The notes below the pieces were generated by a model. That model had not been told where the DNA came from. It was given only the letters and a program-made list of their open reading frames with translations, and made no database searches. The position numbers and the translations under genes are program-made. From the NCBI GenBank assembly GCA_964421045.1, contig CAYQVF010000010.1, forward strand, positions 118-64,117: 64,000 bases of DNA. The letters run 5' to 3'. The stretch is from an uncultured Chromatiaceae bacterium. GTDB taxonomy: Bacteria > Pseudomonadota > Gammaproteobacteria > JAADHS01. This document shows, one piece after another, positions 1,882 through 63,051 of this stretch (positions within the stretch are counted from its first letter, which is position 1; every line of letters begins with the position of its first letter).

Positions 1882-2250
1882 TTATCGCCCTAAAACATCA
1901 TTGCGTGTGGATTCTGCGATTGCCGCCGCTTCAGAGATCAGCTCAGCAGGTACTTTTAACTCGGTTAAGGTTGCGCCAAGATTTTCCATTACGGCATCAA
2001 AATGGCTATCATTTAACCCCTTTGCGACTAAGTGTGCATGGCCTTCACGCATGTCTTTGCCGGAGTAATTGTTTGTACCGCCAAATGCCAGAGTTAAAAA
2101 CGCTTTTTGCTTAGATGCTTGCTTGTCCATATCGACGCCTTCAAAAAATGAGGATATGCGATCATCAGCTAAGACTTTTCTGTAAAAAATATCGACAGCC
2201 GCATTCACTGCGGCTTCACCACCAATTTTTTCAAACAAAGATGTGCTCAT
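1882..2250 (-). CDS. glbN: group I truncated haemoglobin (trHbN-like)
   Basis: 122-aa protein MSTSLFEKIGGEAAVNAAVDIFYRKVLADDRISSFF...HAHL... with the 2/2 haemoglobin signature (FEKIGG and the F-Y-x-K-V pattern). AGGAG RBS 8 nt upstream of the ATG on the minus strand. Confidence 0.85.
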   Translation of the reverse strand: MSTSLFEKIGGEAAVNAAVDIFYRKVLADDRISSFFEGVDMDKQASKQKAFLTLAFGGTNNYSGKDMREGHAHLVAKGLNDSHFDAVMENLGATLTELKVPAELISEAAAIAESTRNDVLGR

Positions 2251-2289
2251 AAGTAAGGCTCCTGAAAGTTATGATAAGAAAAGTGATAT

Positions 2290-2312
2290 AAAGTATATTT
2301 CAAATACATCTT
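2290..2312. promoter_or_regulatory. NsrR-like 11-1-11 inverted repeat upstream of glbN (putative NO-responsive operator)
   Basis: AAAGTATATTT-C-AAATACATCTT lies about 40 bp upstream of the glbN start. The right half matches the enterobacterial NsrR half-site AAATGCATCTT at 10 of 11 positions, and the left half at 7 of 11. Confidence 0.3.
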
Positions 2313-2859
2313 TATACATTTGCGTTGTTTTGTCAAGCTTTATCCTGCCCGACGACACGTCTGTTTTTTTAGAAAATTTAAAATTCAAATCTTTAAAATC
2401 CCTGTTTTTAGCGCCCATTTTTATTTGTATAGCGATATGAAATGTTTCGGAAATAGTAACAAAAAATTCAACTTAACGTTGTCATTCGCGCTTAGGGACT
2501 GAAAATAAATAACTTAACATTTTACTTGTCCATCATTCCATCTCCGGTGTTGCTCAAAGGTTTATATACCAAAGAGTATGAGCATTTTAGAGACGAAATG
2601 CTAGTGTTAGTTCTGTTTTTACGGGCTCTTAGACTCCATATTTTTTATTGCGCAAAGACGATCATTTTCAGGGGCGAGGTAAAACTTCAATCGTTATGAG
2701 CCTCTTTAGAAAGGTTAAAAACTAACGTGGTATGGTTGGCTTACAAGAGGGTGGGCTGTATGATTTTAAAAAATGCGGTTGATCCACGAAGTGCCCTTAG
2801 GGTACATTCGCGTTCAGCCGCGTTTTTCAGGATAATTAGCAATACTTAAGGGGGAGGGT

Positions 2860-5703
2860 ATGTTGAGTGGCTTGCGAGTTGTTTTTACATTAGCACTGTT
2901 GTGTTATGGATTTTCTGCTTGTGCCGGTATTTTTCATGACCCTGATTTAAACTGGAAAACTTTACATAGCCCGCATTTCAAGGTGCATTATCATACGGGG
3001 CTAGAATCGCAAGCACACACTGTTGTTGTTATTGCCGAAGAAGTGCATGAACGCTTAACAACACTTTTCGATTGGTTTCCTCAGCAGAAAACGGATGTGG
3101 TTCTAACCGATGAAACGGGTTTTGCTAATGGTTCGGCGACACCGTTACCCTATAACCGGATGTTACTTGTTGTGACGCCCCCCGACGAAGGTCTGATGGA
3201 TTATGCGATGTGGCTTGAGTCGCTGATTGTTCATGAATACACGCATATTCTTCACATAGACAGGGTGGAGCGTAATCCGCAGCGTCTGCGATCTGTATTG
3301 GGTCGCCATCCTTTGTTGTTTCCCAGTTTATATCAGCCTCTCTGGCTTATTGAAGGTCTCGCGACTTATTTGGAAACAGATGTAGCACGTGGTATCGGGC
3401 GAGGTCAGAGCAGCTATTTTGATATGTTAATGAAAGCAGAAGTGGCATCTGGACTGAAGCCGATCCGGCAAATCAATCAATCTATTCGAACCTGGCCTGC
3501 GGGGGTCACCCCTTACTTGTACGGTGTTTATTTTTATCAATTTCTAGTTGACCGTTACGGTCAAGCGACCTTGGCAGCCTGGCTGAAAAGTTACAGCAGC
3601 AATGTCATTCCTTTTCGCATTAATGGCAATGCCAATGCCTTTTTTGGTGTGAATATGACGGAGCTATGGCAACAATATGAAATTTATTTGCAAGAAAAAT
3701 TTGCCTCAAAGGAATGGCAAATAACAACAGACAATAAAATAGGCGAGCGTTTGACACATTATGGCTATAACACCATGCAAATCCGGGTTGATGATGCGGG
3801 CAATCAGTACTTTATCAAAAATGATGCGCGTACTGAACCTGCGTTGATGCGCAGAACGCAGACTGGAGACATAGAGAAAATTTCAGATGTTCATGTGGGG
3901 GCTCGATTTGATTTGCACGAGACGGCGGGCATCATCATTGCTCAGCCGGAACGATACAACAACGCCAACCTATTTTATGACTTATATCATATTGATGTTC
4001 ATTCAGGAAAAAGCCGAAGATTAACGACAGCAGCACGATATCGTTTTGCTTCCTGGTCCAATGAGGGCAAAAAAATAGCAGCAGTTAAAAGCGAAAGAGG
4101 TCGTTACAGTCTTGATATTCTCTCCCAAGAAGGCGAATGGATTGAGAATTTATGGGAGGCAACGAATGGTGAAATACTTTCTTTTATAGATTGGTCGCCC
4201 GTAGACGATTTGATTGTTGCTTCTGTTTGGCGTCCATCAGGTGGATGGAATCTGGAAGTGTTTGATATGGGAAAAGGCGTTTGGAGGGCGTTGACTGCAG
4301 ATGCGGCTATTCCGTTACATCCTCTATTTTCCAGGACGGGTTCGCGTGTGATCTTTAGTGCGGATTATGACGGTATCTATGATATTTATGAATTGGATAT
4401 CACGGAGACGATGATGTCGAACTTCTCGCGAAGAACACGAGTGACCGGCGGTGCTTTTTTCCCTTCTGAGTCAACAAACGGGGTGATGTATTATGTAGGT
4501 TACGATCAAGAGGGCTATGATCTTTACCAGTTTAATGATGACGTTCGGTTGCTCGCTCCAGTACCACCACAAGGGAGTACAGCGACCTATCGACCATTGG
4601 CAAAAAGTCTGATTGATGTCACAACAACAGCTTATCAACCAATGGAAGGGTTGCAGCCTGGCTGGTGGTTTCCTCTCTTCGCTCTTGCTGATGATTTGTT
4701 TTTATTGGGGGCGACGACATCGGGTTCTGACCCCTTAAATAAACACAATTATAGCGCGATGTTGGCTTATGAGTTTTCCAATGAGCAGTTAATAGGTAGT
4801 TTGGATTATCTCTATGATGGTTGGCAACCAAGCTTCGCATTGCATGGTTCAAGAAATATCGCTTTACATCGCGCATCAAACCGTGATCTTGAACGTGTGA
4901 GACAGTCCGATTTTTACCGTGCCACTTTAAGTTTTCCTTTTCTTCGTTATCGTGATCAATGGGCGCTTTCTTTTGGAATTGAGGCTGAAATTTTGTCGGA
5001 TAGTTATGTTGCCCCTAATGTGCGGGCAGCGGTTGATGAAAAAGACTATGTGCTGGGTAGCGCCCTCACCTACAATTCTGCTAGGAATTATCTGTTAGCC
5101 ATTAGCAGCAGTAATGGTCGTGCTGTGAGTGTGCTTGCAGAGACCAGCGAAATAGGTAACGGGAGTTATAAAGGAGAAGTTTATTCATTAGACTGGCGTG
5201 AATATCTAAAGCTAAAAAGAGAGCACGTTCTTTCATTGAGGGGGTTTCTGGGTTGGGGAACGGATCAACCGAGACAATTTCAATTAGGAGGTAGCGATAC
5301 ATTGGGTGGCGTGTTTAATGCCTTAACCCCCACTTTGGCTTCTCCTTTTAATCGACGTGATTATGCGCTACGAGGTTATGCTGATGGTTTAGCTATACTG
5401 CGTGCACGTCGTGCGGTGTTAGCGAGCGTAGAATGGCGTTTACCTTTATTGCGTTTAGAGCGGGGATGGATGGCGCCGCCGCTCGGTCTGGATCAATTGT
5501 CAGCGGCTTTTTTTATAGATAGTGGTGCAGCTTGGCAGCAAGGTTCAACGCCAGATCGTTATTTTACGGGAGCTGGGGTAGAGCTCAATAGCGATGTACG
5601 GGCTTTCTATTATTTGCCTTTACGTTTACGATTAGGTTATGCGTATGGTTTTGCCGATGAAGGAGAGCACCAGCTCTATTTACAATTAGGGGCTTCATTT
5701 TAG
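2860..5703 (+). CDS. outer-membrane Omp85-family barrel protein with an N-terminal HExxH zinc-peptidase-like domain and a TolB-like beta-propeller
   Basis: Signal peptide (LALLCYGFSACAG). HEYTH at aa 125-129 followed by EGLATY (gluzincin-like HExxH...E). The middle region has TolB/PD40-like repeat character (WSPVDD, VFSADYDGIYDIY). The C-terminus has FQLGGSDTLGG...YALRGY and a terminal Phe (QLGASF), typical of Bac_surface_Ag/Omp85 barrels. Strong GGGAGGG RBS. Confidence 0.75.
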   Translation: MLSGLRVVFTLALLCYGFSACAGIFHDPDLNWKTLHSPHFKVHYHTGLESQAHTVVVIAEEVHERLTTLFDWFPQQKTDVVLTDETGFANGSATPLPYNRMLLVVTPPDEGLMDYAMWLESLIVHEYTHILHIDRVERNPQRLRSVLGRHPLLFPSLYQPLWLIEGLATYLETDVARGIGRGQSSYFDMLMKAEVASGLKPIRQINQSIRTWPAGVTPYLYGVYFYQFLVDRYGQATLAAWLKSYSSNVIPFRINGNANAFFGVNMTELWQQYEIYLQEKFASKEWQITTDNKIGERLTHYGYNTMQIRVDDAGNQYFIKNDARTEPALMRRTQTGDIEKISDVHVGARFDLHETAGIIIAQPERYNNANLFYDLYHIDVHSGKSRRLTTAARYRFASWSNEGKKIAAVKSERGRYSLDILSQEGEWIENLWEATNGEILSFIDWSPVDDLIVASVWRPSGGWNLEVFDMGKGVWRALTADAAIPLHPLFSRTGSRVIFSADYDGIYDIYELDITETMMSNFSRRTRVTGGAFFPSESTNGVMYYVGYDQEGYDLYQFNDDVRLLAPVPPQGSTATYRPLAKSLIDVTTTAYQPMEGLQPGWWFPLFALADDLFLLGATTSGSDPLNKHNYSAMLAYEFSNEQLIGSLDYLYDGWQPSFALHGSRNIALHRASNRDLERVRQSDFYRATLSFPFLRYRDQWALSFGIEAEILSDSYVAPNVRAAVDEKDYVLGSALTYNSARNYLLAISSSNGRAVSVLAETSEIGNGSYKGEVYSLDWREYLKLKREHVLSLRGFLGWGTDQPRQFQLGGSDTLGGVFNALTPTLASPFNRRDYALRGYADGLAILRARRAVLASVEWRLPLLRLERGWMAPPLGLDQLSAAFFIDSGAAWQQGSTPDRYFTGAGVELNSDVRAFYYLPLRLRLGYAYGFADEGEHQLYLQLGASF

Positions 5704-5744
5704 GTTAGAGGTGGTTTTTGGGCGTGTTAACTCTAAGCATATAA

Positions 5745-5818
5745 TCGCATAAAGTGTGCTCCAGAACCGTTTCACTGCTTTTAGATGCGGCTCTAAAAGC
5801 GCCTGACCCTGATTTTTT
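5745..5818. repeat. extragenic repeat copy A plus hairpin and T-tract (bidirectional terminator between convergent genes)
   Basis: CGCATAAAGTGTGCTCCAGAACCGTTTCACTG core, then GCTTTTAGA-TGCGGC-TCTAAAAGC hairpin and a TTTTTT run. Related copies occur at 9379-9438 and 25348-25377. Confidence 0.5.
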
Positions 5819-5897
5819 ATGCAATGGTGGGTTTTGTTGCTGTAATACAATCATAGAGCGTATGCGGAGTGAACGCGAGTTATTACGTGCCCATTCC

Positions 5898-6710
5898 TTA
5901 GTCTATTAGGCTACGATCAATCCACCCTAACGTTTGCTGATCATGTAGCAATACGGCTGTCCATTGACCTTGTTGAGAAAGTGTATAGATGTGTTGTCCT
6001 GCATCTACACGTGAAACGACATCGGCGTTACGGTCAGGTGAAAGATAAACATTGACTTCTGCTGATGTGATCGCTTTATTTGTGTCTTTTAATAAAAGGC
6101 GCAGCCCAGTTTGTGCTCTTGTCGCTCCGGTGTTAATTGCGGTTATAAACCATTTTACCGCTTGTACATGGTCTTGTGGTACGCCATGCCCCTTATGATA
6201 CATTACACCGAGGTTATATTGTGCAGAGGCAAACCCTTGCTCGGCTGCTTGAGTTAACCATTGTCTGGCTATTGTATAATTTTGCTTAATGCCCGCCCCT
6301 TCATAATGCATGAGTGCATAATTGTACTGGGCACTAGGTAACCCCTGTTTCGCTGCGAGCAGGTAGTATTTTTTGGCTATGGCAAAATCTTGCGGTACGC
6401 CTTGCGCGCTTTCATATAACATAGCAAGATTGTTTCTCGCCATGGCGTAACCTTGTTCAGCTGCTTGCGTATACCACTTTGCTGCAGTGCTATAGTCATG
6501 TTTTACGCCTTGTCCGAGTTCATGCATTACGCCAAGCGCATATTGAGATCGTACATCTCCTTTTTGAGCGAGATGCTGCCACATTGCAATCGCTGCTGGA
6601 TAATTGGCTTCTTGGTAAGAGGTAAAGCCGATAATGAAGCTGTTGTTATGGGATTGGATTGGCGCACTATTGAGTAATGCGACGAACAAAATATTCGATA
6701 ATATTGTCAC
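5898..6710 (-). CDS. secreted Sel1-repeat (TPR-like) protein with a C-terminal bacterial SH3-like domain
   Basis: Signal peptide. Six or more Sel1 repeats (AxxWYxxAAxQGxxxAQxNLGxMY pattern repeated). C-terminal segment VNVYLSPDRNADVVSRVDAGQHIYTLSQQGQWTAV resembles an SH3b domain. Confidence 0.8.
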   Translation of the reverse strand: MTILSNILFVALLNSAPIQSHNNSFIIGFTSYQEANYPAAIAMWQHLAQKGDVRSQYALGVMHELGQGVKHDYSTAAKWYTQAAEQGYAMARNNLAMLYESAQGVPQDFAIAKKYYLLAAKQGLPSAQYNYALMHYEGAGIKQNYTIARQWLTQAAEQGFASAQYNLGVMYHKGHGVPQDHVQAVKWFITAINTGATRAQTGLRLLLKDTNKAITSAEVNVYLSPDRNADVVSRVDAGQHIYTLSQQGQWTAVLLHDQQTLGWIDRSLID

Positions 6711-7048
6711 TACAAGTGGCCTCTATGCTTTCAAGTCGGGAAGGGTTGAGTAAAAACTACTTTAGACCTGTATTGCTATTTAGGTCAAGTTTCGTCTTCA
6801 TTTGAGTTTTGTTTTAGAGTGTAGCAAACTTTATGCCGGATTTTATCTTCTTGTTAAATAAAGATATTTTTTATTGTGGTCGGTGCTTTTGTCAGGGTTT
6901 CCGACAATAAGGAACGCTCGTAATAACTTTCGGATCTACATCCTTGCAGGCCATTAGAGCGAGCAAATATAAACTAAATTTGAGCCCCTAAGCCGTGTTT
7001 TTTTGTTGTCAGGGGAAGGGTTTGTATCTTGGATCGCGTTGTTTCTTC

Positions 7049-7840
7049 TCAGCCCGCAATGTGGACATTATGGGGAATAGAGATTTCAACGGCGATAGGT
7101 AGGTGGTCTGATACAGCATGATTAATTACGCCCGCTGAATGTACTTTAAGGGAGGGGGTGAGTAAAATATAATCGAGCTTTTTTGTGGGTCGCCAGCTGG
7201 GGAAGGTGACATCGTTAATAATAGGTGGGCAAAGGTGCGTGAGCGAAAGGAGTAAATCAATTTCTTCGCTGTGCGGTTGGCAGTTTAAGTCACCCATTAG
7301 AACAACATGAGGGTACTGATTGGCAATTTCTGAGATATATCGGAGTTGCATCAGGCGCGCGCGTTTGCTGAGAGCTAAATGGACTAACAACAAAACCAGG
7401 GCGTTATTTTTTTGCCCGAAGCGTATCAGCATGGCACCGCGCCCAGGGATGAGTCCGGGGAGTTTATATTCTTTGATTTCCTTTGGGCGAAAATGGCTTA
7501 AAAGCCCATTGCTGGCCTTGGCTATTTTCCCTAAATTACGATTGGTTTGATGGTGCCAAAAGGGGAATTGTCCTTTGTTGGCCAAGTACTCAACCTGATT
7601 GACAAATTGACTACGGATGCTGCCGGCATCAACTTCTTGCAAGGCAACGATGTCATAATTACGGGTCAAATCAGAAATTCGGTCGAGATTGGAAAAACTT
7701 TGTTGGTGAGGCAAGACATGCTTCCAGCACTCGGTGACATAATGTCTTAAGCGGGAAGAGGCTATTGCAACTTGAATATTGTAGCTGAGTAATCGCAGCC
7801 GGGTGTTCGTCGGTCGACTGTCTGATATCTCATTACTCAT
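7049..7840 (-). CDS. endonuclease/exonuclease/phosphatase (EEP) family protein
   Basis: N-terminal LRLLSYNIQ motif, and conserved Asp/His residues near the C-terminus (DHLPI) typical of the EEP fold. Confidence 0.7.
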   Translation of the reverse strand: MSNEISDSRPTNTRLRLLSYNIQVAIASSRLRHYVTECWKHVLPHQQSFSNLDRISDLTRNYDIVALQEVDAGSIRSQFVNQVEYLANKGQFPFWHHQTNRNLGKIAKASNGLLSHFRPKEIKEYKLPGLIPGRGAMLIRFGQKNNALVLLLVHLALSKRARLMQLRYISEIANQYPHVVLMGDLNCQPHSEEIDLLLSLTHLCPPIINDVTFPSWRPTKKLDYILLTPSLKVHSAGVINHAVSDHLPIAVEISIPHNVHIAG

Positions 7841-7959
7841 AGATTATTGCCGCCACTGCTGATTTTTGCAGTACGAATGCGCGGATGTTCGAGACAGGAC
7901 AACGCCGGGGATGCCGTTGTCGAGGTTCTCTATACTTGGGGAGGCATGCCTCTGAATAA

Positions 7960-8616
7960 TTAGCTTTGATCTTCATATTCTTTTTTGGCAAGAAAGTCTG
8001 TGATTTTCAATATTTCAGGGAAGCTACATTTGCAAATTGTTCCATCGACGCGATATTTTCCATTGATGACGATGCCTGGCGTGCCAGTTAAACCGTAGCG
8101 TCGTCCCATTTCCTGGGATTGGCGAACTTTGGCTTCTACACCAAAAGAACGGAATGCTTTGTTAAATGCTTTTTTATCAACGCCGTTTTCTTCGAAAAAA
8201 TCAGCGAGTGCAGTTTGTGTGTTGAGCTTTCTTTTATGGGCATGAATGGCAGTAAATAGAGGCAGATGAATGTCTTCTACAACGTCAAGGGCTTGCGCAG
8301 CATAGAATGCGCGAGCATGTATTGCCCATTCGGGTCGGAAAATTGCAGGTAATTGTACATATTCAATATAGTCTGCTTTTGACTCTAGCCATCTCTCTAT
8401 ATAAGGTTCAAAACGGTGACAGTGAGTGCAGCCATACCAAAAAAGCGCAACAACCTCTATTTTTTCTTTGTTCGATGTGGGTTGCTTAGGAATAATGCGT
8501 TGGTATGAAACCCCTTCTTGGTATTCCTTGGGAAATAAATCTGCATTGACTGAAAAACTGATTGCCGTCATCATAAGTATGAATAGTGTGAGTATCGTCG
8601 TTTTTAGTGGATTCAT
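7960..8616 (-). CDS. dsbA: thiol:disulfide interchange protein DsbA
   Basis: Signal peptide, a CTHC (CxxC) active site within WYGCTHCHRFEP, and a thioredoxin-fold length (about 218 aa). Confidence 0.85.
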   Translation of the reverse strand: MNPLKTTILTLFILMMTAISFSVNADLFPKEYQEGVSYQRIIPKQPTSNKEKIEVVALFWYGCTHCHRFEPYIERWLESKADYIEYVQLPAIFRPEWAIHARAFYAAQALDVVEDIHLPLFTAIHAHKRKLNTQTALADFFEENGVDKKAFNKAFRSFGVEAKVRQSQEMGRRYGLTGTPGIVINGKYRVDGTICKCSFPEILKITDFLAKKEYEDQS

Positions 8617-8726
8617 CTTGTGGTCTCGTATTTGTTCTCGGTAAATTGTAAATAATGGATAGATTAACTCATATATTTAGCGCAACATAGTTTATTTTAA
8701 AATGCTATTTTAATACGAAATAAAAA

Positions 8727-9356
8727 ATGAATACATTGTATAACAGAGCAGAATTTTTGGATGGCATCGCTCGTTTAAATCAGCTTCCTGAAGATGTCGG
8801 CTATGAAGTGGCCTTTGCGGGTCGTTCTAATGTGGGTAAATCAAGCGCTTTAAATACGATAACGAGCCGCCGGGCATTGGCCAGAACCAGTAAAACACCG
8901 GGACGAACACAACAGATAAATTTGTTTACCCTGGATGCCGAACGTCGTTTGGCCGATTTACCCGGTTACGGGTTTGCTAAAGTACCCAATGCCGTTAAGA
9001 AAAAGTGGTATACTTTGCTGGAAACGTATTTGCAAACGCGTGTCTCGCTGCGCGGTATTATTATTTTTATGGATCTGCGTCGACCTTTGATGGATTTTGA
9101 CGTGCGTATGCTGGATTGGTGTACGGAAGCAGGTGTCCCCACCTACATTGTTTTGACAAAATCAGATAAGTTAAAGCGCGGCCCCGGATTAGCCGCGGTC
9201 AATACGGTTAAAAAATATGTAGCCGAAAAATATGCCCCTATCACACCGCGCAATGGGGGGCCGGCTGAAGAAATTAAAGTGCAATTATTTTCTTCATTAA
9301 AAAAACAGGGCATAGAAGACGCACATAATCAACTGGATTATTGGTTGTCGGTGTAA
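8727..9356 (+). CDS. engB: ribosome biogenesis GTP-binding protein EngB/YihA
   Basis: G1 motif GRSNVGKSS, DLPGYG, and overall similarity to YsxC/EngB. Confidence 0.9.
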   Translation: MNTLYNRAEFLDGIARLNQLPEDVGYEVAFAGRSNVGKSSALNTITSRRALARTSKTPGRTQQINLFTLDAERRLADLPGYGFAKVPNAVKKKWYTLLETYLQTRVSLRGIIIFMDLRRPLMDFDVRMLDWCTEAGVPTYIVLTKSDKLKRGPGLAAVNTVKKYVAEKYAPITPRNGGPAEEIKVQLFSSLKKQGIEDAHNQLDYWLSV

Positions 9357-9378
9357 GTTTGATACTTCACCTATCATT

Positions 9379-9438
9379 GCATAAATTATGACCCAGAACC
9401 GTTTTACTGTTCTAAAAGCGTCTGGGTCTGATTTTTTA
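9379..9438. repeat. extragenic repeat copy B plus hairpin and T-tract (terminator between convergent engB and crp)
   Basis: GCATAAATTATGACCCAGAACCGTTTTACTG core. GACCCAGA...TCTGGGTC forms an 8-bp stem, followed by TGATTTTTTA. Confidence 0.5.
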
Positions 9439-9458
9439 GATGACGATAGGGTTTATTT

Positions 9459-10127
9459 CTAATCCGGCGCTCTTAGTTTATCGCGGTCGCCGAGTATAAC
9501 TATGGTTTTACCTTTTGAGGTCACAATGTTTTCTTCTTCAAGATTTTTCAATACGCGACCAACCATTTCTCTTGAACAGCCGACTATTTTTCCTAATTCT
9601 TGACGGGTGATGCGAATTTGCATGCCATCAGGGTGAGTGACGGCGTCGGGTTCTTTGCAGAGGTCTTGTAAAGTACGGGCAATGCGCCCGGTAACATCCA
9701 TGAATGCCAAGCGACTGACGCTACTGCTGGTACGACGTAACCTGAGTGCCATTTGCCCTGCAAGCGCAAACAAAATATCAGGGTCTTCGCGCGCTAAAAT
9801 ACGAAATTTACTATAGCTGATTTCGGCAATTTCACAATTATTTCTGGCACGAATCCAGGCGCTGCGGTTATGATTTTGTGCAAAAAGCCCCATTTCACCA
9901 AAAAAATCACCTTGATTCAGGTAGGCCAGTACAATTTCTTTGCCTATGTCCGTTTCGATCAGAACACTGACTGAGCCTTTGATTACGTAAAAAAGCACAT
10001 CAGGGGTATCTCCGGCACAGATGATAATGTTTTTAGCTGGGTATTTTCGCAGACGGCAATGTTGTAGGAAGCGGTCAATAACCATTTCTTCTTTTGATTG
10101 AGGTTTCGGTGTCGCTAGTCGCTCCAT
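9459..10127 (-). CDS. crp: cAMP receptor protein (Crp/Vfr-type global regulator)
   Basis: cNMP-binding domain (GDFFGEMGLF) and C-terminal HTH RQELGKIVGCSREMVGRVLK, very close to the E. coli CRP helix. Confidence 0.9.
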   Translation of the reverse strand: MERLATPKPQSKEEMVIDRFLQHCRLRKYPAKNIIICAGDTPDVLFYVIKGSVSVLIETDIGKEIVLAYLNQGDFFGEMGLFAQNHNRSAWIRARNNCEIAEISYSKFRILAREDPDILFALAGQMALRLRRTSSSVSRLAFMDVTGRIARTLQDLCKEPDAVTHPDGMQIRITRQELGKIVGCSREMVGRVLKNLEEENIVTSKGKTIVILGDRDKLRAPD

Positions 10128-10285
10128 AGCAAGTATCCCCCTTATTATTTATAGCAACGTTCTCTTGCTAAAGTATCGGCATTCATGGGGTTAAAGTTTA
10201 GATTAGGGCTGATGCAATGGTAGCTGCTATAATTTTCTTACCCCAGAACAGTTAGTTTTTCTAGGCGAAATGGAGAAAAAAATCT

Positions 10286-10717
10286 ATGCAGGCGCGAATA
10301 AAATGGGTAGAAAAAGCGACTTTTATCGGTGAAAGCGGTAGTGGTCATGCTGTTGTGATGGATGGCCCTCCCGAGGCTGGAGGGCGTAATCTTGGTGTAC
10401 GGCCGATGGAAATGTTGTTGCTTGGTATGGGAGGGTGCGCTGCCTTTGACGTTGTGCATATTTTGAAAAAATCGCGTCAATCAGTTGAAGATTGTATTGC
10501 GGAAGTAAATGCTGAGCGGGCTCAGGATGAGCCTAAAATATTTACAAAAATACATCTTCATTTTCAGGTTAGTGGTGCAGGTTTGACAGAAAAAAATGTG
10601 GCGCGGGCGGTGAGCTTGTCCGCTGAAAAATATTGTTCTGCATCGATCATGTTGGGCAAAAGTGCTGAAATTACACATGACTTTGTCATCGTGGATAGAG
10701 CGTATGACAAGACTTAA
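10286..10717 (+). CDS. OsmC/Ohr-family protein (YhfA-like)
   Basis: OsmC-like fold signature around the GMGGCAAFD and CSAS cysteine regions; 143 aa. Confidence 0.75.
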
Positions 10718-11495
10718 ATTACACGGGTTTAATAATCTTACTAAAACTTTGAGTTTCAATATTTACGATGTGTGTTATACCAGCACGACTGAACAGCGCA
10801 ATAAATATATTGAATATATCGATGAGGTCTATAATGCAGATCGCTTGACTCAAATATTGACGGATGTTTCTAATATCATAGATGCCAATATTTTGAATAT
10901 TGCCCACCAGGATTATGATCCGCAAGGTGCGAGTGTCACGATGTTGATCTCTGAAGAATCAGTGATATCCGACGCCATATCAAATACAGAGGCACCAGGG
11001 CCCTTGCCTGATGCTGTGGTGGCGCATTTGGATAAAAGCCACTTAACGGTGCATACCTATCCAGAGAGTCATCCAGAAAATGAGATCAGTACATTTCGAG
11101 TAGATATTGATGTTTCAACCTGCGGCCGGGTTTCCCCGTTAAAAGCTTTGAATTATTTAATACACAGTTTTGAGTCGGATATCGTGATTATGGATTATCG
11201 TGTACGTGGATTTACAAGGAATTTACAAGGGGAAAAATATTTTATGGATCACAAAATTTCATCTATTCAAAATTATTTATCTAATGATACTAAAGAGCTT
11301 TATCAAATGATTGATGTGAATGTTTATCAGGAAAACATTTTTCATACTAAAATGATGTTAAAAAATTTTTCTTTAGATAATTATCTATTTGAAGTGAAGG
11401 CGGCAGATCTAAGTGAAAGAGCCTGGAATCGTATTAATACCCTATTAAAACACGAAATGGCAGAAATTTTTTACGGGCAAAATATAGCGGATTAG
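10704..11495 (+). CDS. speD: S-adenosylmethionine decarboxylase proenzyme
   Basis: [26 protein letters not shown] is near-identical to the E. coli SpeD N-terminus. The start was moved to this internal ATG, which overlaps the osmC-like gene end. The longer six-frame ORF start at 10662 is unlikely. Confidence 0.85.
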
Positions 11496-11528
11496 ACATT
11501 TCATAATGATGAATTTACACCTTTAACA

Positions 11529-12527
11529 TTGAATAAAAAACTAAAATTTGTAGCCTTTCTGGAAAAAGAGCGTGAAAGCTTAGGTGTTGGGGTGATAGGT
11601 CGCTATGCGCCCAGCCCAACAGGTCATTTGCATAGGGGTAATCTCTTTGCGGCATTAATGGCCTGGTTACAGTGCCGTTTGGCAGGAGGCCAGTTTTTCC
11701 TTCGATTTGAAGATTTAGACCGGCAGCGTGTACGCTCTAATAGTTTCGATTCAATTTTACAGGATTTGCAATGGTTAGGGCTAAACTGGGATGCGGTGCC
11801 AGGCGAGCTAAAAGACAGTTTTATAAGCCAGTCCAAGCGAAAATTTATTTATGATGCTGCTTTAGCATACCTTGGTGAGCAGCAAAAAATATTTCCCTGT
11901 GGTTGTTCTCGAAAAGATATTGCATTTGCTGCCAGCGCACCTCATAAAGGAACGCAGAAGGTGTTGATCTACCCCGGAACCTGTCGTAATGTGTCCACGA
12001 ATGAATCTCTTGAATCACGTGTTTGGCGTTATCGAATGCCAAAATCTGATGTTGTATTTACTGATGAGGTCTCAGGAGTTTATAGTCAATCATTAGCTCG
12101 GGACGTGGGCGATTTTGTCTTGCGACGAGCAGATGGGGTTTATGCCTATCAATTTGTTGTCGTTGTTGATGATATTTTGATGGGGGTTACCGATGTTGTT
12201 AGAGGCGCAGATTTGCTCGAGTCAACGCCACGACAAATCGAATTATTTAATAGCTTAGGGGGCGGGGTTCCTCGCTTTTGGCATGTCCCCTTATTATGCG
12301 ATGCGTATGGTGTTCGTTTATCAAAACGCGATGGCGCAAGTTCAATATCAAGCTTGCGTGAGGCCGGTGAGTGTGCTGAAGTGCTGGTTGGGCAATTAGC
12401 CGCTTCTGTTTCTTTAGTGACGGAAGGTACTGTTTTGTCGGCGAAAGAATTATTGGAAGAGGTTGGAACGCTTCATCATTTCCGACAAAAATTGCAGCAA
12501 GCCCCAAAAGTTATAAATCATTTTTAG
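11529..12527 (+). CDS. gluQ: glutamyl-Q tRNA(Asp) synthetase
   Basis: Class I aaRS motif GRYAPSPTGHLHRGNL (HIGH region), with a truncated GluRS catalytic-domain length and no anticodon-binding domain. The true start may be a few codons downstream. Confidence 0.85.
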   Translation: MNKKLKFVAFLEKERESLGVGVIGRYAPSPTGHLHRGNLFAALMAWLQCRLAGGQFFLRFEDLDRQRVRSNSFDSILQDLQWLGLNWDAVPGELKDSFISQSKRKFIYDAALAYLGEQQKIFPCGCSRKDIAFAASAPHKGTQKVLIYPGTCRNVSTNESLESRVWRYRMPKSDVVFTDEVSGVYSQSLARDVGDFVLRRADGVYAYQFVVVVDDILMGVTDVVRGADLLESTPRQIELFNSLGGGVPRFWHVPLLCDAYGVRLSKRDGASSISSLREAGECAEVLVGQLAASVSLVTEGTVLSAKELLEEVGTLHHFRQKLQQAPKVINHF

Positions 12528-15813: not shown

Positions 15814-17730
15814 TTATGGTGTCTCATTTATCGCCGGTTCAAGTGGTGGCTCCTCTTCCCCTGTGGTCGCCCCTGATGAGGGGGGGGGCTTTTCGCCGGG
15901 TTGTTTATATTCAACAGGGGGTCGAGGGGGGTTGCCTGCCATGATGTCATTGACTTGGTCTTTGTCTAATGTTTCATATTCCATGAGCGCATCGGCCATG
16001 GCATGAAGGATGTCGATACGATCATTTAGTATTTTTTCAGATTGTTCATAGTTCCTTTCGATAAGCGATTTGATTTCGTTATCAATGGTTTCGGCAGTGC
16101 TATTCGCCATGGCTGACTCGGTTTGGTTTTGTCCTAAAAACCCTTGGTTTTCATCTTCAAGAAAGGCGCGTGGGCCGATGACGGAGGACAAGCCCCATTT
16201 TTTTACCATATTCGTTGCCAGCTCTGTAGCTCGTTGAATATCATTGCTGGCTCCTGTGGTGACCGCATCAGCACCAAAGATGATTTCTTCAGCGATACGT
16301 CCGCCAAACAGACTGGCAAGCTGGCTTTCTAAGCGTCGTTTGCTATAGCTGTGACGGTCTTCTTCTGGCAGGTACATGGTGACCCCTAGTGCTCGTCCTC
16401 TTGGGATGATGCTGACTTTGTGCACGGGGTCATGTTCGGGTACGGTTAAACCAACAATGGTATGTCCCGCTTCATGATACGCCGTGAGTTTTTTCTCCGA
16501 TTCGCTCATCACCATAGAGCGGCGCTCTGCACCCATCATGATTTTATCTTTAGCGTGTTCAAAATCTTCGTTGGTAACGGTATCTCGTCGTTCACGGGCG
16601 GCAAATAATGCCGCTTCATTGACGAGATTAGCCAGGTCAGCGCCCGAAAACCCAGGGGTGCCTCTTGCTATAGTGGAAGCATCGACATTGTCGCACGAAG
16701 GGATTTTACGCATGTGGACTTTGAGGATTTGGGCTCGACCCCGAACGTCAGGTAGGGGGACGGTGACTTGGCGGTCAAAGCGTCCTGGTCTAAGCAAAGC
16801 ATTGTCAAGGACATCAGGTCGGTTGGTTGCAGCAATAACGATGATGCCCTCAGTTCCTTCAAAGCCATCCATCTCTACCAGCAATTGATTGAGTGTTTGT
16901 TCACGTTCGTCGTTGCCACCGCCAATGCCGGCGCCTCGTTTACGTCCAACCGCGTCGATTTCATCGATGAATATAATGCAGGGTGCCGCTTTTTTGGCTT
17001 CTGCAAAAAGATCTCGTACTCGCGATGCGCCCACTCCGACAAACATTTCAACGAAGTCGGAGCCAGAAATGGAGAAAAAAGGAACTTCTGCTTCGCCAGC
17101 AATGGCTTTGGCGAGCAAGGTTTTACCCGTTCCTGGTGCGCCAACCATTAAGATGCCACGCGGGATTTGTCCTCCTACTTTTCTGAAGCGCTCACCATCG
17201 CGAAGGAAGTCGACAATTTCGCCTACTTCTTCCTTGGCTTCTTCAACTCCGGCGACATCAGTGAATTTAATATTGACTTGTCCTGCGCTAAACGTTTTTG
17301 CATTGGTTTTGCCAAAACGAAACGCACCACCATTCTGTCCACCGCCTTGTGAACGTTTCAGGAAATAGACCCACAGTGCAATAATAATGATGAAGGGGAG
17401 CCAGGAAATGATTAAACTGCCAAAAAAAGATTGTTTTTCTTTGGGTGCCGCTTTGATTATTACACCGTTGCTGATTAAATCTCCTATCAAGCCATTATCA
17501 TTGGGCGTATGGGCTTTAAAGGGGCTTCGTTCTGCATCCAAGCCATAGATAACGCCGTCATCAATCATGACTTCGACTATATTTTTATCGTTTATTTTCT
17601 TTAAAAACTCTGAATAAGGGATGGTATAGCGACTTTCCTCAATGTCAGCGGTCGAGCTGAGAAGAAAAAAAACAGACAAAGTTGCGAATGCCATTGTCAA
17701 AATAATGGCAGGTGCGCCAAAGTTTTTCAT
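15814..17730 (-). CDS. ftsH: ATP-dependent zinc metalloprotease FtsH
   Basis: Two TM segments, AAA+ Walker [12 protein letters not shown], and the zinc site HEAGH. Confidence 0.95.
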
Positions 17731-30396: not shown

Positions 30397-32091
30397 TCAA
30401 AAATTGCTGGGGTTTGTTATTGCTTTTGGTTTTCCTCTGACAAATTGAGCCCATTGCAAGCCGCGAAAGATGCGGTTGTTGTCCTGGATGCGTAAGAACC
30501 CTGTCTTTCCGGAAAAATGCTGGTAACGGTATTTGCTTAGGCGGGGTAAATGGGGTAGGAGCGCATAACTATCTATACCTAAGGCGTAGAGTCGTTTCAA
30601 GGGTTTGATGTTGCCTGTTGATGCAGACTCGATGGTTTGCCAGAGGGGGTTGGGTTGTGCGGTATTAATGATCCATGGCATATCGCAAAAGCGGATACCA
30701 TTCAGATCTCTATCGGCGCTGGGGTCGGGGTTGCCTGTGTAGACATGGGAGGTCGCATAAACAGGTAAATCAGCTGCATAGAAAAATTTGAGTTGAGGGC
30801 GAATTTGTCTTGCTTGCTGGGGTTGTGCGGCAATAAAAACAAAATCAATATCTTGTCTTCGTCTTGGTTCGCTATGTACTTTTTTCCCGAGAAAGCGGCC
30901 AATTTCTTTTATTCTAGCTTTACTTTCATCAAGATTGAGCACGGCCTGCAGCGGACTTGAAAAATTATTTGTGTTAGGGGTATAGGTTGTTGTTTCTACG
31001 GTAATTCCCCCTAGTTGTGACCAGGTTTCGTTGAAGGCGTTGGCAATTCGGTGACCCCATGGCGAGTCGGGTGTGATTAAAATAGCTTGGTTATGGCCAT
31101 CTAGCCAGGCTTTTTCTGCGACTTGTTCAGCCTCATCTTCGGGCGCCAGGCCAAATTGAAATAAATTTTCGGGGGGAGGCGTTTTGTGGGTGCTGTAGTT
31201 GAGCGCCAGCGTAGGCACAGGTAGTGATTCCTGGGTTGCTAGAATATTGACACCCTCTTTATTGAGTGGGCCGATAATGACGTCAGCGCCTTCCGCCACA
31301 GCTTTTTCGTAGGCGATCCAAGTTTGTTCAGCCAGTGTGCCGGAGTCGTAAAAGCGTAACGTAGGGCTGAACTCTTCCTTTTGGGATTGGTAAAAAGCCG
31401 CAGCAAACCCGTCTCGAATCGCCGTGGCGGGTTTGGCAAAAGGGCCGGAAGCGGGCAGGAGTAGCGCGATATTACGAGGTTGAAAAAGGTCTGAGCGTTC
31501 AAGTTCCAGCAATGATGTTAATAGTTTTGATGAGGCGGGGTGGTCAGGATAGGTTTCTTGCCATAAAGAGAGTTCTTGTTCAAAATCAATGCTAATTTTG
31601 TTTTGTCGATGGTAAAGTTGGGCAAGTGCAAGCCATCCTGTTTCAGAATTTTCTATAGTATTATTATTGAGATTTTCTAGGTTTTGAGGTGACATCATGG
31701 CCAATAACGGCCATAGCTGTTCTTCTATCGCAATGCGTTCTTCAGCCGAATTTTCTGGTGATCGCATGAGTGTTTGAGCGGCAAGTTCACGTTGTCCGGT
31801 TTGTTGATAGGCTTGAGCACGAAGTTGATAGAGCTCGGGGATCAAATGTTCAGATATCGCATCGGATGATAAGGGAATAAGTAATGTGAGCGCCTCCTGC
31901 GGCATTTTTTTATTGAGTAATTCGCTGGCGTTAAACAGTAAGGCTTGGGTCTTGTTTTCACCTTGATCATCTGGGTTCGAGTCTGGGGGTGAGATGGGTG
32001 TTGTGGTGCATCCGTAAAGGAACAGGGCTGAAATTAAGAGTATAATGCTGCGTATGCGTATTATAGGTAAAACAGAGTATGGATTATCCAT
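30397..32091 (-). CDS. lpoA: penicillin-binding protein activator LpoA (outer-membrane lipoprotein)
   Basis: The six-frame ORF extends to 32463, but the plausible start is ATG at 32091 (MDNPYSVLPIIRIRSIILLISALFLYGCTT, lipobox LYGC). N-terminal TPR-like region plus a C-terminal periplasmic-binding-protein-like domain. Divergent from rsmI as in E. coli. Confidence 0.75.
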   Translation of the reverse strand: MDNPYSVLPIIRIRSIILLISALFLYGCTTTPISPPDSNPDDQGENKTQALLFNASELLNKKMPQEALTLLIPLSSDAISEHLIPELYQLRAQAYQQTGQRELAAQTLMRSPENSAEERIAIEEQLWPLLAMMSPQNLENLNNNTIENSETGWLALAQLYHRQNKISIDFEQELSLWQETYPDHPASSKLLTSLLELERSDLFQPRNIALLLPASGPFAKPATAIRDGFAAAFYQSQKEEFSPTLRFYDSGTLAEQTWIAYEKAVAEGADVIIGPLNKEGVNILATQESLPVPTLALNYSTHKTPPPENLFQFGLAPEDEAEQVAEKAWLDGHNQAILITPDSPWGHRIANAFNETWSQLGGITVETTTYTPNTNNFSSPLQAVLNLDESKARIKEIGRFLGKKVHSEPRRRQDIDFVFIAAQPQQARQIRPQLKFFYAADLPVYATSHVYTGNPDPSADRDLNGIRFCDMPWIINTAQPNPLWQTIESASTGNIKPLKRLYALGIDSYALLPHLPRLSKYRYQHFSGKTGFLRIQDNNRIFRGLQWAQFVRGKPKAITNPSNF

Positions 32092-32134
32092 GTTAGGCCT
32101 TTTTGTCTCTTTAACTATAAATGGGTCGTGATTT

Positions 32135-32980
32135 GTGTCAAACCTGACGGGAACATTATACGTGGTTGCGACGCCGATAGGGCATCTGGGCGATATTTCC
32201 GCACGTGCCTTAGAGGTTTTACAAAGTGTGGATTGTATTGCCGCTGAAGACACGAGACGAACTTTATCACTCTTAAGACATTTTGGCATCCAAACACGCT
32301 GTATTGCTTGCCATGACCACAATGAAAAAAATGCAGCGAAGGGCTTGATCAAGTTATTGTCAGAAGGCAAAAATATTGCGTTAGTGAGCGATGCGGGTAC
32401 GCCTTTAATCAGCGATCCAGGTTTTATTTTGGTGCGCAACGCGATCAACAGGAAAGAGATCAATGTTGTTCCTGTTCCGGGGCCGTGTGCCGCTATTGCG
32501 GCATTAAGCGCTGTTGGGATGACGACCCGAAAATTTATCTTTGAAGGGTTTTTGCCTGCAAAAAAAACAGAACGACAACGTTACCTGAGTACCTTGCAGA
32601 AAGAGCAACGCACTCTGGTTTTTTATGAGTCCAGTCATAGAATTGTTGCATTGTTCGATGATTTGGTGGCACAATTTGGAGCGCAACGCAACGTGGCTCT
32701 TGCCAAAGAAATAACAAAATTACATGAAACGTTTAAAGTCGGTGAATTGCAACAAATTGCGGATTGGTTAGGCGAGCAGGACGTTCGTCGCAAAGGTGAA
32801 TTTGTCGTTATTGTCGAAGGCGCGAGTAAAGAGCATGATGATGCCGATCGTATCGAAGCCCGTCGGGTATTAGCAGCACTGCTAACTGAGCTCAGCGTAA
32901 AAAAAGCAAGTAAAATTGCCGCTCAAATCGTTAACTTGAACAAAAATGAGCTGTACCAATTAGCGCTGGAACTTAGGTGA
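32135..32980 (+). CDS. rsmI: 16S rRNA (cytidine1402-2'-O)-methyltransferase RsmI
   Basis: LYVVATPIGHLGDISARALEVL...DCIAAEDTR is a tetrapyrrole-methylase-fold signature of RsmI. Confidence 0.9.
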   Translation: MSNLTGTLYVVATPIGHLGDISARALEVLQSVDCIAAEDTRRTLSLLRHFGIQTRCIACHDHNEKNAAKGLIKLLSEGKNIALVSDAGTPLISDPGFILVRNAINRKEINVVPVPGPCAAIAALSAVGMTTRKFIFEGFLPAKKTERQRYLSTLQKEQRTLVFYESSHRIVALFDDLVAQFGAQRNVALAKEITKLHETFKVGELQQIADWLGEQDVRRKGEFVVIVEGASKEHDDADRIEARRVLAALLTELSVKKASKIAAQIVNLNKNELYQLALELR

Positions 32981-35605: not shown

Positions 35606-35962
35606 GGCGAGAGTCGGCTGAGTGATCGCGGAAATCTGATTTGGATTTTCGAGGAAAGTCCGGGCTCCATAGGGCAGGGTGCCAGGTAACGCCTGGGAGG
35701 CGCGAGTCTACGGAAAGTGCAGCAGAAAGTATACCGCCGAAGCAAATTCAGCATCGGTAAGGGTGAAAAGGTGTGGTAAGAGCGCACCGCGTCGATGGCA
35801 ACATACGGCGGCAAGGTAAACCCCACTCGGAGCAAGACCAAATAGGGGGGCATTGATGTGGCCCGCATTGCCCCCGGGTAGGTTGCTTGAGGCGTATGGT
35901 GACATGCGTCCAGATGAATGATTACTCACGACAGAACCCGGCTTACAGGCCGACTCTCTCAT
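35606..35962 (+). ncRNA. rnpB: RNase P RNA, bacterial type A
   Basis: GAGGAAAGTCCGGGCTCCATAGGGCAGGGTGCCAGGTAACGCCTGGG..., AGGGTGAAA.GGTG.GGTAAGAGCGCACC and ACAGAACCCGGCTTA match the universally conserved P4/P10-12/P15 regions of E. coli M1 RNA. P1 pairing is GAGAGTCGGC / GCCGACTCTC. The minus-strand ORFs here are artefacts. Confidence 0.9.
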
Positions 35963-37677: not shown

Positions 37678-37997
37678 TGGCAGCATCTGCTGATACTGTT
37701 GGCGATTTTCAGGGTACGTTACCATTAGGCTATGGGCGGAGTGTGTCGGTGATATTGCTGGTGGTGGTTGTCATTGTGTCGGCAATTGGCGTCGCGCAAA
37801 CCCGATATGATACCCGGCGATTATTCGTTGAGCTGGAGCAGTTGAAAGCAGATTGTTTGAAGCTTGAAGAAGATTGGGGAAAATTGCAGTTAGAAGAAAG
37901 TACGTATTCAACTCATGGCGCGGTTGAACATAAGGCTCGTTCCCAGTTAGGTATGTTGATGCCCGCTTTAAAAGCCGTGGAGCACCTTTCTCCATGA
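37677..37997 (+). CDS. ftsL: cell division protein FtsL
   Basis: Small bitopic protein with a TM helix (VSVILLVVVVIVSAIGV) and a leucine-zipper-like periplasmic coiled coil, between rsmH and ftsI. Confidence 0.8.
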   Translation: MAASADTVGDFQGTLPLGYGRSVSVILLVVVVIVSAIGVAQTRYDTRRLFVELEQLKADCLKLEEDWGKLQLEESTYSTHGAVEHKARSQLGMLMPALKAVEHLSP

Positions 37998-62862: not shown

Positions 62863-63051
62863 TTTGATGTGTTCATGTTTAAAATTATTGCACATTTTTG
62901 ACTGTTCGCCCACTAGCGCTTCGCGCTTCTTTTGGTGCTACAATGGCGGCTGGAAATCCGTAGTAGAAAGTTAGAGTTTCAATGGAGGCTCTAGTTCCTT
63001 GTATCGGCATGCTGTTAAAATCTCTGAAGACTAAGAGGCTGTTAGATTAAG

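Follow-up and report, generated by a model that had tools for sequence, protein, structure and literature searches.

What is the function of a 947-aa protein that ends in an Omp85-type outer-membrane barrel and carries a putative zinc peptidase and a beta-propeller where POTRA domains would be expected? The question is raised by a gene at positions 2860..5703 (stop codon included) of the plus strand, on which all features described below lie, in a 64,000-nt stretch of DNA from an uncultured Chromatiaceae bacterium (the window). The gene is complete, as judged from the ORF list, its homologues and an AF2 model of its product, and a Shine-Dalgarno sequence graded strong, GGGGGAGGG (2850-2858), can be read just 5' of its ATG (2860). 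No fewer than 727 full-length homologues of the protein were found, and relatives are encoded in at least 544 species genomes; 2860..5703 is therefore a real gene. The sigma-E consensus GAACTT-N15-17-TCNAA was not found 5' of the gene, its single match in the window lying at 55952, and a generic promoter and terminator scan of positions 2200-7000 gave counts not above those of shuffled sequences. A search of the whole window against Rfam returned RNase P only, the 610-nt spacer upstream of the gene being without a match.

The protein begins with a Sec signal peptide of the signal-peptidase-I type (aa 1-23; 2860..2928), assigned from the AxA present in homologues and from a pLDDT below 50. The signal peptides of the homologues are ordinary, with the AxA placed just ahead of a conserved (G/A)xxHD start. 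A lipoprotein reading, suggested by a lipobox-like FSAC in the 947-aa protein, was rejected because FSAC is not conserved and the homologues carry AxA signal peptides.

The AF2 model of the whole three-domain chain (pLDDT 86.9, pTM 0.88) runs from an alpha/beta N-terminal domain through 24 short strands and a 36-aa linker to 16 long strands. The initial annotation had read the protein as a gluzincin peptidase with an HExxH and a later glutamate, a TolB/PD40-like propeller and an Omp85 barrel, and this three-part reading is borne out: the model contains the 16-strand barrel, the six-bladed propeller and the alpha/beta N-terminal domain, and the motifs (HEYTH at aa 125-129, EGLATY approximately 36 aa later, LRGY and the terminal aromatic residue) all lie where they had been placed. 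It can be taken as nearly certain, jointly with the family assignment given below, that zinc peptidase, TolB-like propeller and Omp85 barrel make up the protein and that it has no POTRA domains. The high pTM suggests that the three domains may pack as one rigid unit. Conservation was determined on a set of 39 sequences, homologues of 41-77% identity, and Pfam matches were counted over 39 members at E<=0.01. The 947-aa query alone lies below every Pfam threshold and likewise reaches no curated NCBIfam threshold, so the sequence assignments to Omp85 and PD40 rest on homologues, of which P0033 and P0071 pass the gathering scores for both. Invariant columns are most frequent in the peptidase domain (13.2%), followed by the barrel (10.1%) and the propeller (4.1%).

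The gluzincin (clan MA, M1-like) zinc-peptidase domain spans aa 24-296 (2929..3747), beginning right after the signal peptide and followed by the propeller in the AF2 model. It possesses the features that define a gluzincin, namely an HExxH active-site helix, a glutamate ligand on a later helix and a thermolysin-like alpha/beta fold. In the zinc-binding and catalytic motif HEYTH (aa 125-129; 3232..3246), H125, E126, Y127 and H129 are invariant in all 39 sequences, and hhalign places the motif opposite the HEISH of LTA4H. The glutamate helix WLIEGLATYLE (aa 162-172; 3343..3375) aligns with WLNEGHTVYLE of LTA4H, which contains E318, and its residues W162, E165, G166, A168 and E172 are invariant across the 39 sequences; E165 is predicted to supply the third zinc ligand. 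A third motif, YLYG (aa 219-222; 3514..3525), has all four residues invariant in 39/39 sequences, and a permissive hhalign of low confidence (probability ~10%) sets PYLYG opposite the PYEKG of LTA4H, which contains Tyr383, making Y219 the predicted transition-state tyrosine. H125, E126, H129, E165 and Y219 are also retained in a Vibrio homologue of only 30% identity.

The domain departs from M1 peptidases in several features. The spacing from H129 to E165 is 36 residues, as it is in 34 of the 39 sequences (38-42 in the others), against 18 in M1. The GxMEN motif, searched as G.MEN, is present in none of the 39 sequences, and the same permissive, low-confidence hhalign leaves a gap opposite the GGME of LTA4H. 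The query scores 14.2 bits against Peptidase_M1 (PF01433), where the cutoff is 27.7. The absence of the GxMEN anchor and of the domains that flank the catalytic domain in M1 favours an endo- or oligopeptidase, which on these sequence features is probably likelier than a strict aminopeptidase. Constraint is strongest in the peptidase domain, whose catalytic residues are invariant, the pattern expected of an active enzyme, and we infer from sequence that the domain is catalytically active.

The six-bladed TolB/PD40-like beta-propeller (aa 297-565; 3748..4554) is formed in the AF2 model by 24 short strands between aa 306 and 565, is structurally nearest to TolB and matches PD40 in 28 of the 39 members. 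Matches of homologues to Tricorn_N and Tricorn_2nd were described as 'faint' and 'weak', are absent from the Pfam scan at E<=1 and are read as generic propeller cross-hits. The linker (aa 566-601; 4555..4662), delimited from the AF2 model and from its length in the 39 members, is 34-40 aa long in all of them and contains one 4-residue strand and one 5-residue helix; it ends in the invariant P600. It is too short to be a POTRA domain, and at E<=0.01 none of the 39 members matched a POTRA Pfam family, in agreement with the earlier observation that POTRA domains are absent.

The Omp85-type beta-barrel (aa 602-947; 4663..5700) has 16 long strands between aa 602 and 943 in the AF2 model and the fold of BamA and TamA, with W603 and P605 invariant in its first strand. 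Strands 11 and 12 are joined by a 50-aa loop (aa 801-850; 5260..5409, from the DSSP string of the model), the equivalent of Omp85 L6. Conservation identifies within this loop an LRGY (aa 837-840; 5368-5379), which we take to be the (V/I)RG(F/Y) motif of BamA L6: R838 and G839 are invariant (39/39), and L837 and Y840 are each present in 38/39. Strand 13 (model strand 875-892) carries a conserved FxDxG-type motif, FIDSG (aa 885-889; 5512..5526), in which F885 is found in 39/39 sequences, D/E887 in 38/39 and G889 in 38/39. The terminal aromatic residue F947 and Y940 are both invariant (39/39). PF01103 does not match the query at E<=1 but is matched by 20 of the 39 members at E<=0.01, with scores of 25.1 and 27.9 bits (cutoff 24) in two homologues of 44-46% identity (P0033 and P0071).

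The protein had at first not been recognized as a described family. Its architecture, however, is already present in Tables S2 and S3 of Heinz & Lithgow (2014, Front Microbiol 5:370; PMC4104836), who defined a 'WD40-like' Omp85 subfamily. Table S2 gives the Pfam profile of the whole subfamily as PF01103+PF07676 with POTRA absent, and Table S3 lists Phyre2 matches of about 100 members to the BamA/TamA barrel, to TolB and to an M1/M9 'aminopeptidase', with 1z5h, 4kxd, 3qnf and 4ar1 as the peptidase templates (PMC4104836). The text of that paper treats only the propeller, as part of a BamA-BamB-like fusion, and the peptidase domain appears just in a supplementary column. Later descriptions, still in 2024, refer to the subfamily as uncharacterized and as having 'divergent WD40 and peptidase domains' (PMC11358297; PMC11116518). 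The present protein exhibits the PF01103 and PF07676 profile, no POTRA, a TolB-like propeller and an M1/M9-type N-terminal region, and so almost certainly joins the WD40-like subfamily, an assignment made by matching its domain profile to Tables S2 and S3. An indirect link to the sequences listed there is a colinear Vibrio nigripulchritudo homologue (WP_038125482.1) of 30% identity (BLASTP E=2e-125). The N-terminal domain gave 7,668 hits in all. At E<=1e-30 the peptidase domain recurs in 1,685 clusters of 50% identity, and the best 150 of these by score are nearly all ~950 aa in length. Literature searches found no characterized member of the subfamily and no experiment on any member, and its peptidase domain has no dedicated Pfam or NCBIfam model. 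WD40-like proteins are annotated as 'hypothetical' or misnamed 'TolB'.

All window neighbours were compared by tblastn with 80 related loci. The Sel1/SH3 gene downstream had been put forward as a possible partner, but over these 80 loci the Sel1 gene was found, and lies adjacent, solely in the 93%-identical relative L005, which leaves the proposal without support. De novo clustering of neighbours across the 80 loci gave ubiB (16), a rep/uvrD-type helicase (14), ubiE (12), ubiJ (12), ptsP (10) and hslUV (10); these best clusters represent housekeeping synteny and therefore point to no functional partner. The WD40-like gene has no conserved neighbour over the 80 related loci. It stands alone, and its genomic context provides no functional hint.

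The favoured explanation, to which a probability of roughly 0.6 is given, is that the protein is an outer-membrane-anchored, periplasm-facing, active zinc peptidase. A single polypeptide would leave the cytoplasm by Sec and be set into the outer membrane by its 16-strand Omp85 barrel. Its N-terminal 540 residues, the M1-like peptidase and then the six-bladed propeller, would hang into the periplasm, taking the place of POTRA domains. Zinc would be bound by H125, H129 and E165, with E126 acting as the general base and Y219 steadying the transition state, and the peptidase domain would cleave periplasmic or envelope polypeptides. The propeller probably acts as a substrate filter, docking platform, gate or recruiter, and the barrel would at minimum hold the enzyme at the periplasmic face of the outer membrane. 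As to substrates, the best guess is a role in the quality control or turnover of envelope proteins.

The topology follows from the barrel. In Omp85 proteins such as BamA, L6 is extracellular and lies between strands 11 and 12. The LRGY loop also lies between strands 11 and 12, so strand 1 would start at the periplasmic face, and from this topology rule, applied to the model, together with the precedent of PlpD, we infer a periplasmic orientation of the N-terminal domains. A surface-exposed or export topology appears less likely on the same structural and comparative grounds.

Retention of the LRGY and FxDxG-type motifs suggests that the barrel may do more than anchor the enzyme. An alternative, unlikely but worth weighing, is a working Omp85 machine in which the lateral gate engages barrel or secreted clients, the propeller replaces the POTRA domains and BamB, and the peptidase processes or destroys the clients, so that one chain would parallel BAM and BepA together. 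The motifs linked to BamA function are kept (R838 and G839 invariant in L6; FxDxG-type motif on strand 13), a barrel with 10.1% invariant columns seems to be conserved beyond the need of a passive anchor, and the residues at the start of strand 1 (W603, P605) and just before it (P600) are invariant. The machine would also be in keeping with the BamA-BamB fusion analogy proposed by Heinz & Lithgow (PMC4104836) and with the action of M48 proteases such as BepA at BAM (PMC13067283). More doubtful is a single-chain machine for OMP quality control or processing, its barrel serving as a functional lateral gate, in which misassembled beta-barrel or lipoprotein clients would be caught by the barrel or propeller and fed to the zinc site.

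There is only a slim chance that the protein is a type-V-like self-exporter, the export module of the initial annotation, whose barrel would move the peptidase and propeller to the surface to give a surface-exposed or released protease. The layout of N-terminal enzyme and C-terminal barrel superficially resembles the type Vd model first drawn up for PlpD, Heinz & Lithgow raised surface display, as a formal option, for Omp85 proteins that bear an enzyme (PMC4104836), and a 36-aa linker could in principle span the barrel. However, the N-terminal enzyme domain of PlpD is in fact periplasmic, as protease accessibility and disulfide mapping have shown (PMC11116518), and ~540 tightly folded residues, a closed six-bladed propeller among them, would need to be moved across with no source of energy. 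In the linker there is just a 5-residue helix, unlike the long helices that fill autotransporter barrels, the barrel lumen would be expected to hold L6, and the high pTM suggests that the domains are packed as one unit. Least credible is a non-catalytic scaffold in which a pseudo-enzyme with a propeller would bind, for example, peptidoglycan peptides or Pal-like lipoproteins and tether the outer membrane to the cell wall: the peptidase Pfam scores of the query are sub-threshold and TolB propellers are protein-binding modules, but pseudo-enzymes usually lose catalytic residues, whereas the five predicted catalytic and zinc residues are invariant in 39 homologues and kept in the 30%-identical Vibrio protein, and no part of the chain is more conserved than the peptidase domain.

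To our knowledge, the Omp85 proteins studied so far insert or translocate proteins, with the exception of PlpD, a periplasmic lipase on a barrel. Should the favoured outer-membrane-anchored peptidase prove active in the periplasm, it would establish a new class of envelope proteases tethered to the outer membrane, and the Omp85 scaffold would have been reused for enzymology a second time. If instead the quality-control machine is the true reading, one chain would do the work of BAM plus BepA/DegP and would be the first Omp85 protein with intrinsic proteolytic activity. The WD40-like subfamily has been known since 2014, is large and is uncharacterized; what is new is this sequence as a member. 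As starting points for biochemistry the analysis adds a complete, invariant M1-like catalytic set without the aminopeptidase anchor in the most constrained domain, the retention of functional Omp85 barrel motifs, and the solitary gene.

With BamA and TamA the protein shares the 16-strand barrel, an L6 (V/I/L)RG(F/Y), the strand-13 FxDxG-type motif and the C-terminal aromatic residue, but it has no POTRA domain, whereas BamA has five and TamA three, and sequence identity is ~15%. M1 enzymes (ERAP1, PSA, APN/PepN, LTA4H and tricorn factor F3) differ in their GxMEN and His-Glu spacing (18, not 36), and in possessing an N-terminal beta-sandwich and a C-terminal helical domain, both missing here. 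Compared with TolB of Tol-Pal, the propeller alone aligns and the N-terminal alpha/beta domain of TolB is absent; the score against TIGR02800 (TolB) is 38 bits where the cutoff is 343, and no tol-pal context was found around the gene, whose neighbours are globin, Sel1, EEP and DsbA genes. The lack of the TolB N-terminal domain, of tol-pal context and of an equivalog score makes the UniRef name 'TolB protein' of the 75%-identical P0005 misleading.

PF00149, which we take to be the calcineurin-like metallophosphoesterase family and not an HExxH peptidase, is unmatched in the query and in all 39 homologues, and membership of the 'Metallo' Omp85 subfamily is therefore rejected. That subfamily of Heinz & Lithgow, which combines PF00149 with PF01103 (PMC4104836), likewise places a metallo-enzyme domain N-terminal to a barrel and has no clear POTRA, but the N-terminal domain itself differs. 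BepA (M48), a periplasmic zinc metalloprotease that acts at an Omp85 barrel in OMP quality control (PMC13067283), may be a functional analogue. The patatin-like Omp85 proteins represented by PlpD (formerly 'type Vd secretion') likewise join an N-terminal enzyme to a C-terminal 16-strand Omp85 barrel; PlpD, however, is a homodimer with a patatin lipase and one POTRA, whereas the 947-aa protein combines a zinc peptidase with a propeller and lacks POTRA domains. We know of no other studied Omp85 protein with an N-terminal enzyme domain than PlpD, and of no other whose topology has been tested. With the WD40-like subfamily the architecture is identical, and this locus contributes a new sequence, that of an uncultured gammaproteobacterium of vent type.

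The open reading frame at 2860..5703 (+), which the initial annotation had taken to encode a 947-residue protein, is recovered as such in the ORF list and is preceded by a strong Shine-Dalgarno sequence, GGGGGAGGG, upstream of the ATG (2850-2858, +). Among 5.8 billion proteins searched, 727 or more match the window protein, with query coverage of 96-100% for the best 120, and a genome scan put the number of species genomes with a relative at 544 or more; the ORF is therefore a real gene. The hosts of these relatives in the genome scan are chiefly uncultured sulfur- and iron-oxidising Gammaproteobacteria (Acidiferrobacterales, Ectothiorhodospiraceae, Chromatiales, Thiohalomonadaceae and Ca. Tenderia) and Zetaproteobacteria (Mariprofundus and Ghiorsea). 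The closest relative found, at locus L005, exhibits 93% identity and comes from a MAG labelled 'Gammaproteobacteria bacterium'. A homologue with 75% identity from a hydrothermal vent metagenome, P0005, is named in UniRef 'TolB protein, periplasmic protein involved in the tonB-independent uptake of group A ...', which is a naming problem, as the likeness to TolB is limited to the propeller.

By itself, the window protein stays below every curated Pfam and NCBIfam threshold; its signals for Peptidase_MA_2, M61 and TolB are weak. In an alignment of 39 homologues (41-77% identity), PD40 was matched in 28 members and Omp85 (PF01103) in 20, two homologues exceed the Pfam gathering scores for both, and the alignment profile matches TolB structures with E=2.4e-16. 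An AlphaFold2 model built on this alignment is confident (mean pLDDT 86.9, pTM 0.88), and its secondary structure comprises an alpha/beta domain (aa 32-291), 24 short strands forming six four-stranded blades (aa 306-565), a 36-residue linker, and 16 long strands (aa 602-943), the eleventh and twelfth of which are joined by a 50-residue loop. The profile matches and the model bear out the original description of a peptidase-like domain, a propeller and an Omp85 barrel, and the reported lack of POTRA domains also holds: Pfam POTRA families are matched in none of the 39 homologues, and the propeller-barrel linker is 34-40 residues long in all of them, less than the roughly 75 residues that a POTRA domain takes up. 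The C-terminal 346 residues of this Sec-exported protein thus constitute an Omp85 barrel, and the N-terminal 540 residues an intact-looking zinc peptidase and a TolB-like propeller. A lipoprotein reading of FSAC in the window protein was rejected, as it is not conserved as a lipobox and the homologues possess ordinary AxA-type signal peptides. A peptidase-domain profile searched against 1.84 billion cluster representatives gave 7,668 matches at E<=1e-3, of which 5,064 remain at E<=1e-10 and 1,685 at E<=1e-30. Nearly all of the best 150 matches are 920-1,010 aa long and carry the domain at residues ~20-300; those that are shorter look like contig-end fragments. The three-domain architecture is therefore fixed and common and is no one-off fusion.

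The barrel retains LRGY at 837-840 in the strand 11/12 loop, with R838 and G839 present in all 39 homologues; the L6 VRGF/Y motif of BamA occupies the same place. Strand 13 carries FIDSG (885-889), as it does FxDxG in BamA; F947 is invariant, and so are P600, W603 and P605 at the junction of the linker and strand 1. Retention of the L6 and strand-13 motifs, together with the invariance of the junction residues, would also suit an Omp85 machine that engages clients and has a protease built in, a reading that we regard as unlikely. The LRGY loop would correspond to the extracellular L6, so that strand 1 would start on the periplasmic face, and the peptidase and propeller probably sit in the periplasm, in the usual place of POTRA domains; type-V-like display of the enzyme at the cell surface is improbable. 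The only precedent with a tested topology is PlpD, whose enzyme domain was long believed to be secreted and stays periplasmic according to protease accessibility, disulfide mapping and lipidomics (PMC11116518).

The peptidase domain has the highest proportion of invariant columns (13.2%, against 10.1% in the barrel and 4.1% in the propeller). H125, E126, Y127, H129, W162, E165, G166, A168 and E172 are invariant in all 39 homologues, as are the GRGQ motif (180-183) and Y219-L-Y-G222. An hhalign alignment to an LTA4H segment identical to residues 247-441 of PDB chain 8twx_A pairs HEYTH with HEISH and WLIEGLATYLE with WLNEGHTVYLE, such that E165 corresponds to E318 (pairwise E=0.0025), and reveals a 17-residue insertion in the family of the window protein. 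A permissive, low-confidence alignment (~10% probability) sets PYLYGVYFYQFL opposite LTA4H PYEKGFALLFYL, placing Y219 at the catalytic Tyr383, and leaves a gap facing GGME of the GxMEN motif; G.MEN is absent from all 39 sequences. Membership of M1 sensu stricto was rejected on spacing, GxMEN, flanking domains and threshold. The high conservation and complete invariant catalytic set argue for an active enzyme, and a tether devoid of catalysis is very improbable. A periplasm-facing, active, membrane-anchored peptidase is favoured, with a probability of about 0.6. In the absence of both GxMEN and the flanking domains of M1, its cleft would have neither the M1 N-terminus anchor nor the lid, and endo- or oligopeptidase behaviour is expected. 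The propeller may be a filter or docking module for the enzyme, as propellers are in tricorn, prolyl oligopeptidases and DPP-IV, and the most economical guess for the substrates is envelope protein turnover or quality control.

Upstream of the gene and divergent from it lie a truncated-haemoglobin gene (Bac_globin; 1882-2250, -) and, following on the same strand, an FNR-like reductase (FAD_binding_6/NAD_binding_1; 859-1860, -), which may form a globin-reductase pair; the longer ORF of the reductase has a Cys-rich ferredoxin-like N-terminus. The spacer between the globin and Omp85-peptidase genes (2251-2859) is AT-rich and unusually long (610 nt). Like the gene flanks as a whole, it contains no Rfam family or sigma-E consensus, and promoter-like and terminator signals in the gene flanks, including this spacer, are no commoner than chance or shuffles. 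The product of the convergent downstream gene (5898-6710, -) is secreted; it contains four Sel1 repeats (E=1.1e-40) and, at its C-terminus, a weak bacterial SH3 domain (E=2.7e-4). Beyond this gene come EEP, DsbA, EngB, Crp, OsmC, SpeD and GluQRS family genes. By tblastn of the window neighbours against 80 related loci, the Sel1 gene lies near the target only in L005, and its adjacency is therefore lineage-specific. De novo clustering of flanking ORFs from the 80 loci yielded no widely conserved neighbour, the commonest clusters being ubiB (16), rep-type helicase (14), ubiE and ubiJ (12 each), and ptsP and hslUV (10 each). The gene thus stands alone, and the Sel1/SH3 partnership initially proposed is unsupported. 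The window is ordinary core chromosome, with a full-length bacterial RNase P class A RNA (35610-35961, +; 334 bits) and a dcw-type cell-division/cell-wall cluster followed by lpxC and secA (36685-59384, +), in which FtsI-like PBP (37994-39730), MraY (42690-43772), FtsZ (52747-53916), LpxC (54076-54990) and SecA (56655-59384) were confirmed. Outside this cluster lie FtsH (15814-17730, -), an LpoA/LppC-like lipoprotein (30397-32463, -) and a Slt lytic transglycosylase (60910-62913, -).

A homologue on the 247-kb conjugative plasmid VIBNI_pA of Vibrio nigripulchritudo (NC_015156), WP_038125482.1, carries the annotation 'hypothetical protein' and the UniRef name 'FOG: WD40 repeat protein'. This homologue is colinear with the window protein end to end (30% identity, BLASTP E=2e-125) and retains HEYTH, EGLA, YLYG, LRGY, FIDSGAAW and the terminal F, apparently linking the window protein directly to the Vibrio branch. 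In the surrounding region (3697-11972), the genes immediately upstream on the same strand encode a response regulator and an ATP-binding, kinase-like protein, and an M66 family metalloprotease gene lies 1.2 kb away in convergent orientation, a context unlike the housekeeping contexts of chromosomal copies.

Identity with TolB itself was rejected, as there is no TolB N-domain or tol-pal operon context and the score is 38 bits against a 343-bit cutoff. Nor is the protein a member of the 'Metallo' Omp85 subfamily (PF00149), a domain that we take to be the calcineurin-like metallophosphoesterase family. PF00149 was termed a 'metalloprotease' domain by Heinz & Lithgow 2014 (PMC4104836), to our knowledge a naming problem. 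That study split the Omp85/TpsB superfamily into ten subfamilies, among them 'WD40-like' (PF01103 and PF07676; Table S2), in which a TolB-like propeller replaces POTRA and which was compared to a BamA-BamB fusion (PMC4104836). For about 100 WD40-like members, its Table S3 gives Phyre2 matches to BamA/TamA (confidence of 99.3-100% in nearly all rows) and TolB (99.9-100%, again in nearly all rows), and a 'best aminopeptidase hit' at about 99% to 1z5h F3, 4kxd APA, 3qnf ERAP1 or 4ar1/4ar9 collagenase (PMC4104836). 'Divergent WD40 and peptidase domains' were mentioned later (PMC11358297), the subfamily is counted among those 'not well characterized' (PMC11116518), and no experimental study of it emerged from the literature searches. 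The domains described in the initial annotation therefore stand, but its family is not undescribed: the window protein adds a member to a known, uncharacterised subfamily whose existence is familiar to specialists. For this large subfamily, the analysis names specific residues that can be mutated and poses a well-defined question of topology, and, as matched through the published domain profile and Phyre2 tables, the window protein has the same architecture as the WD40-like Omp85 members.
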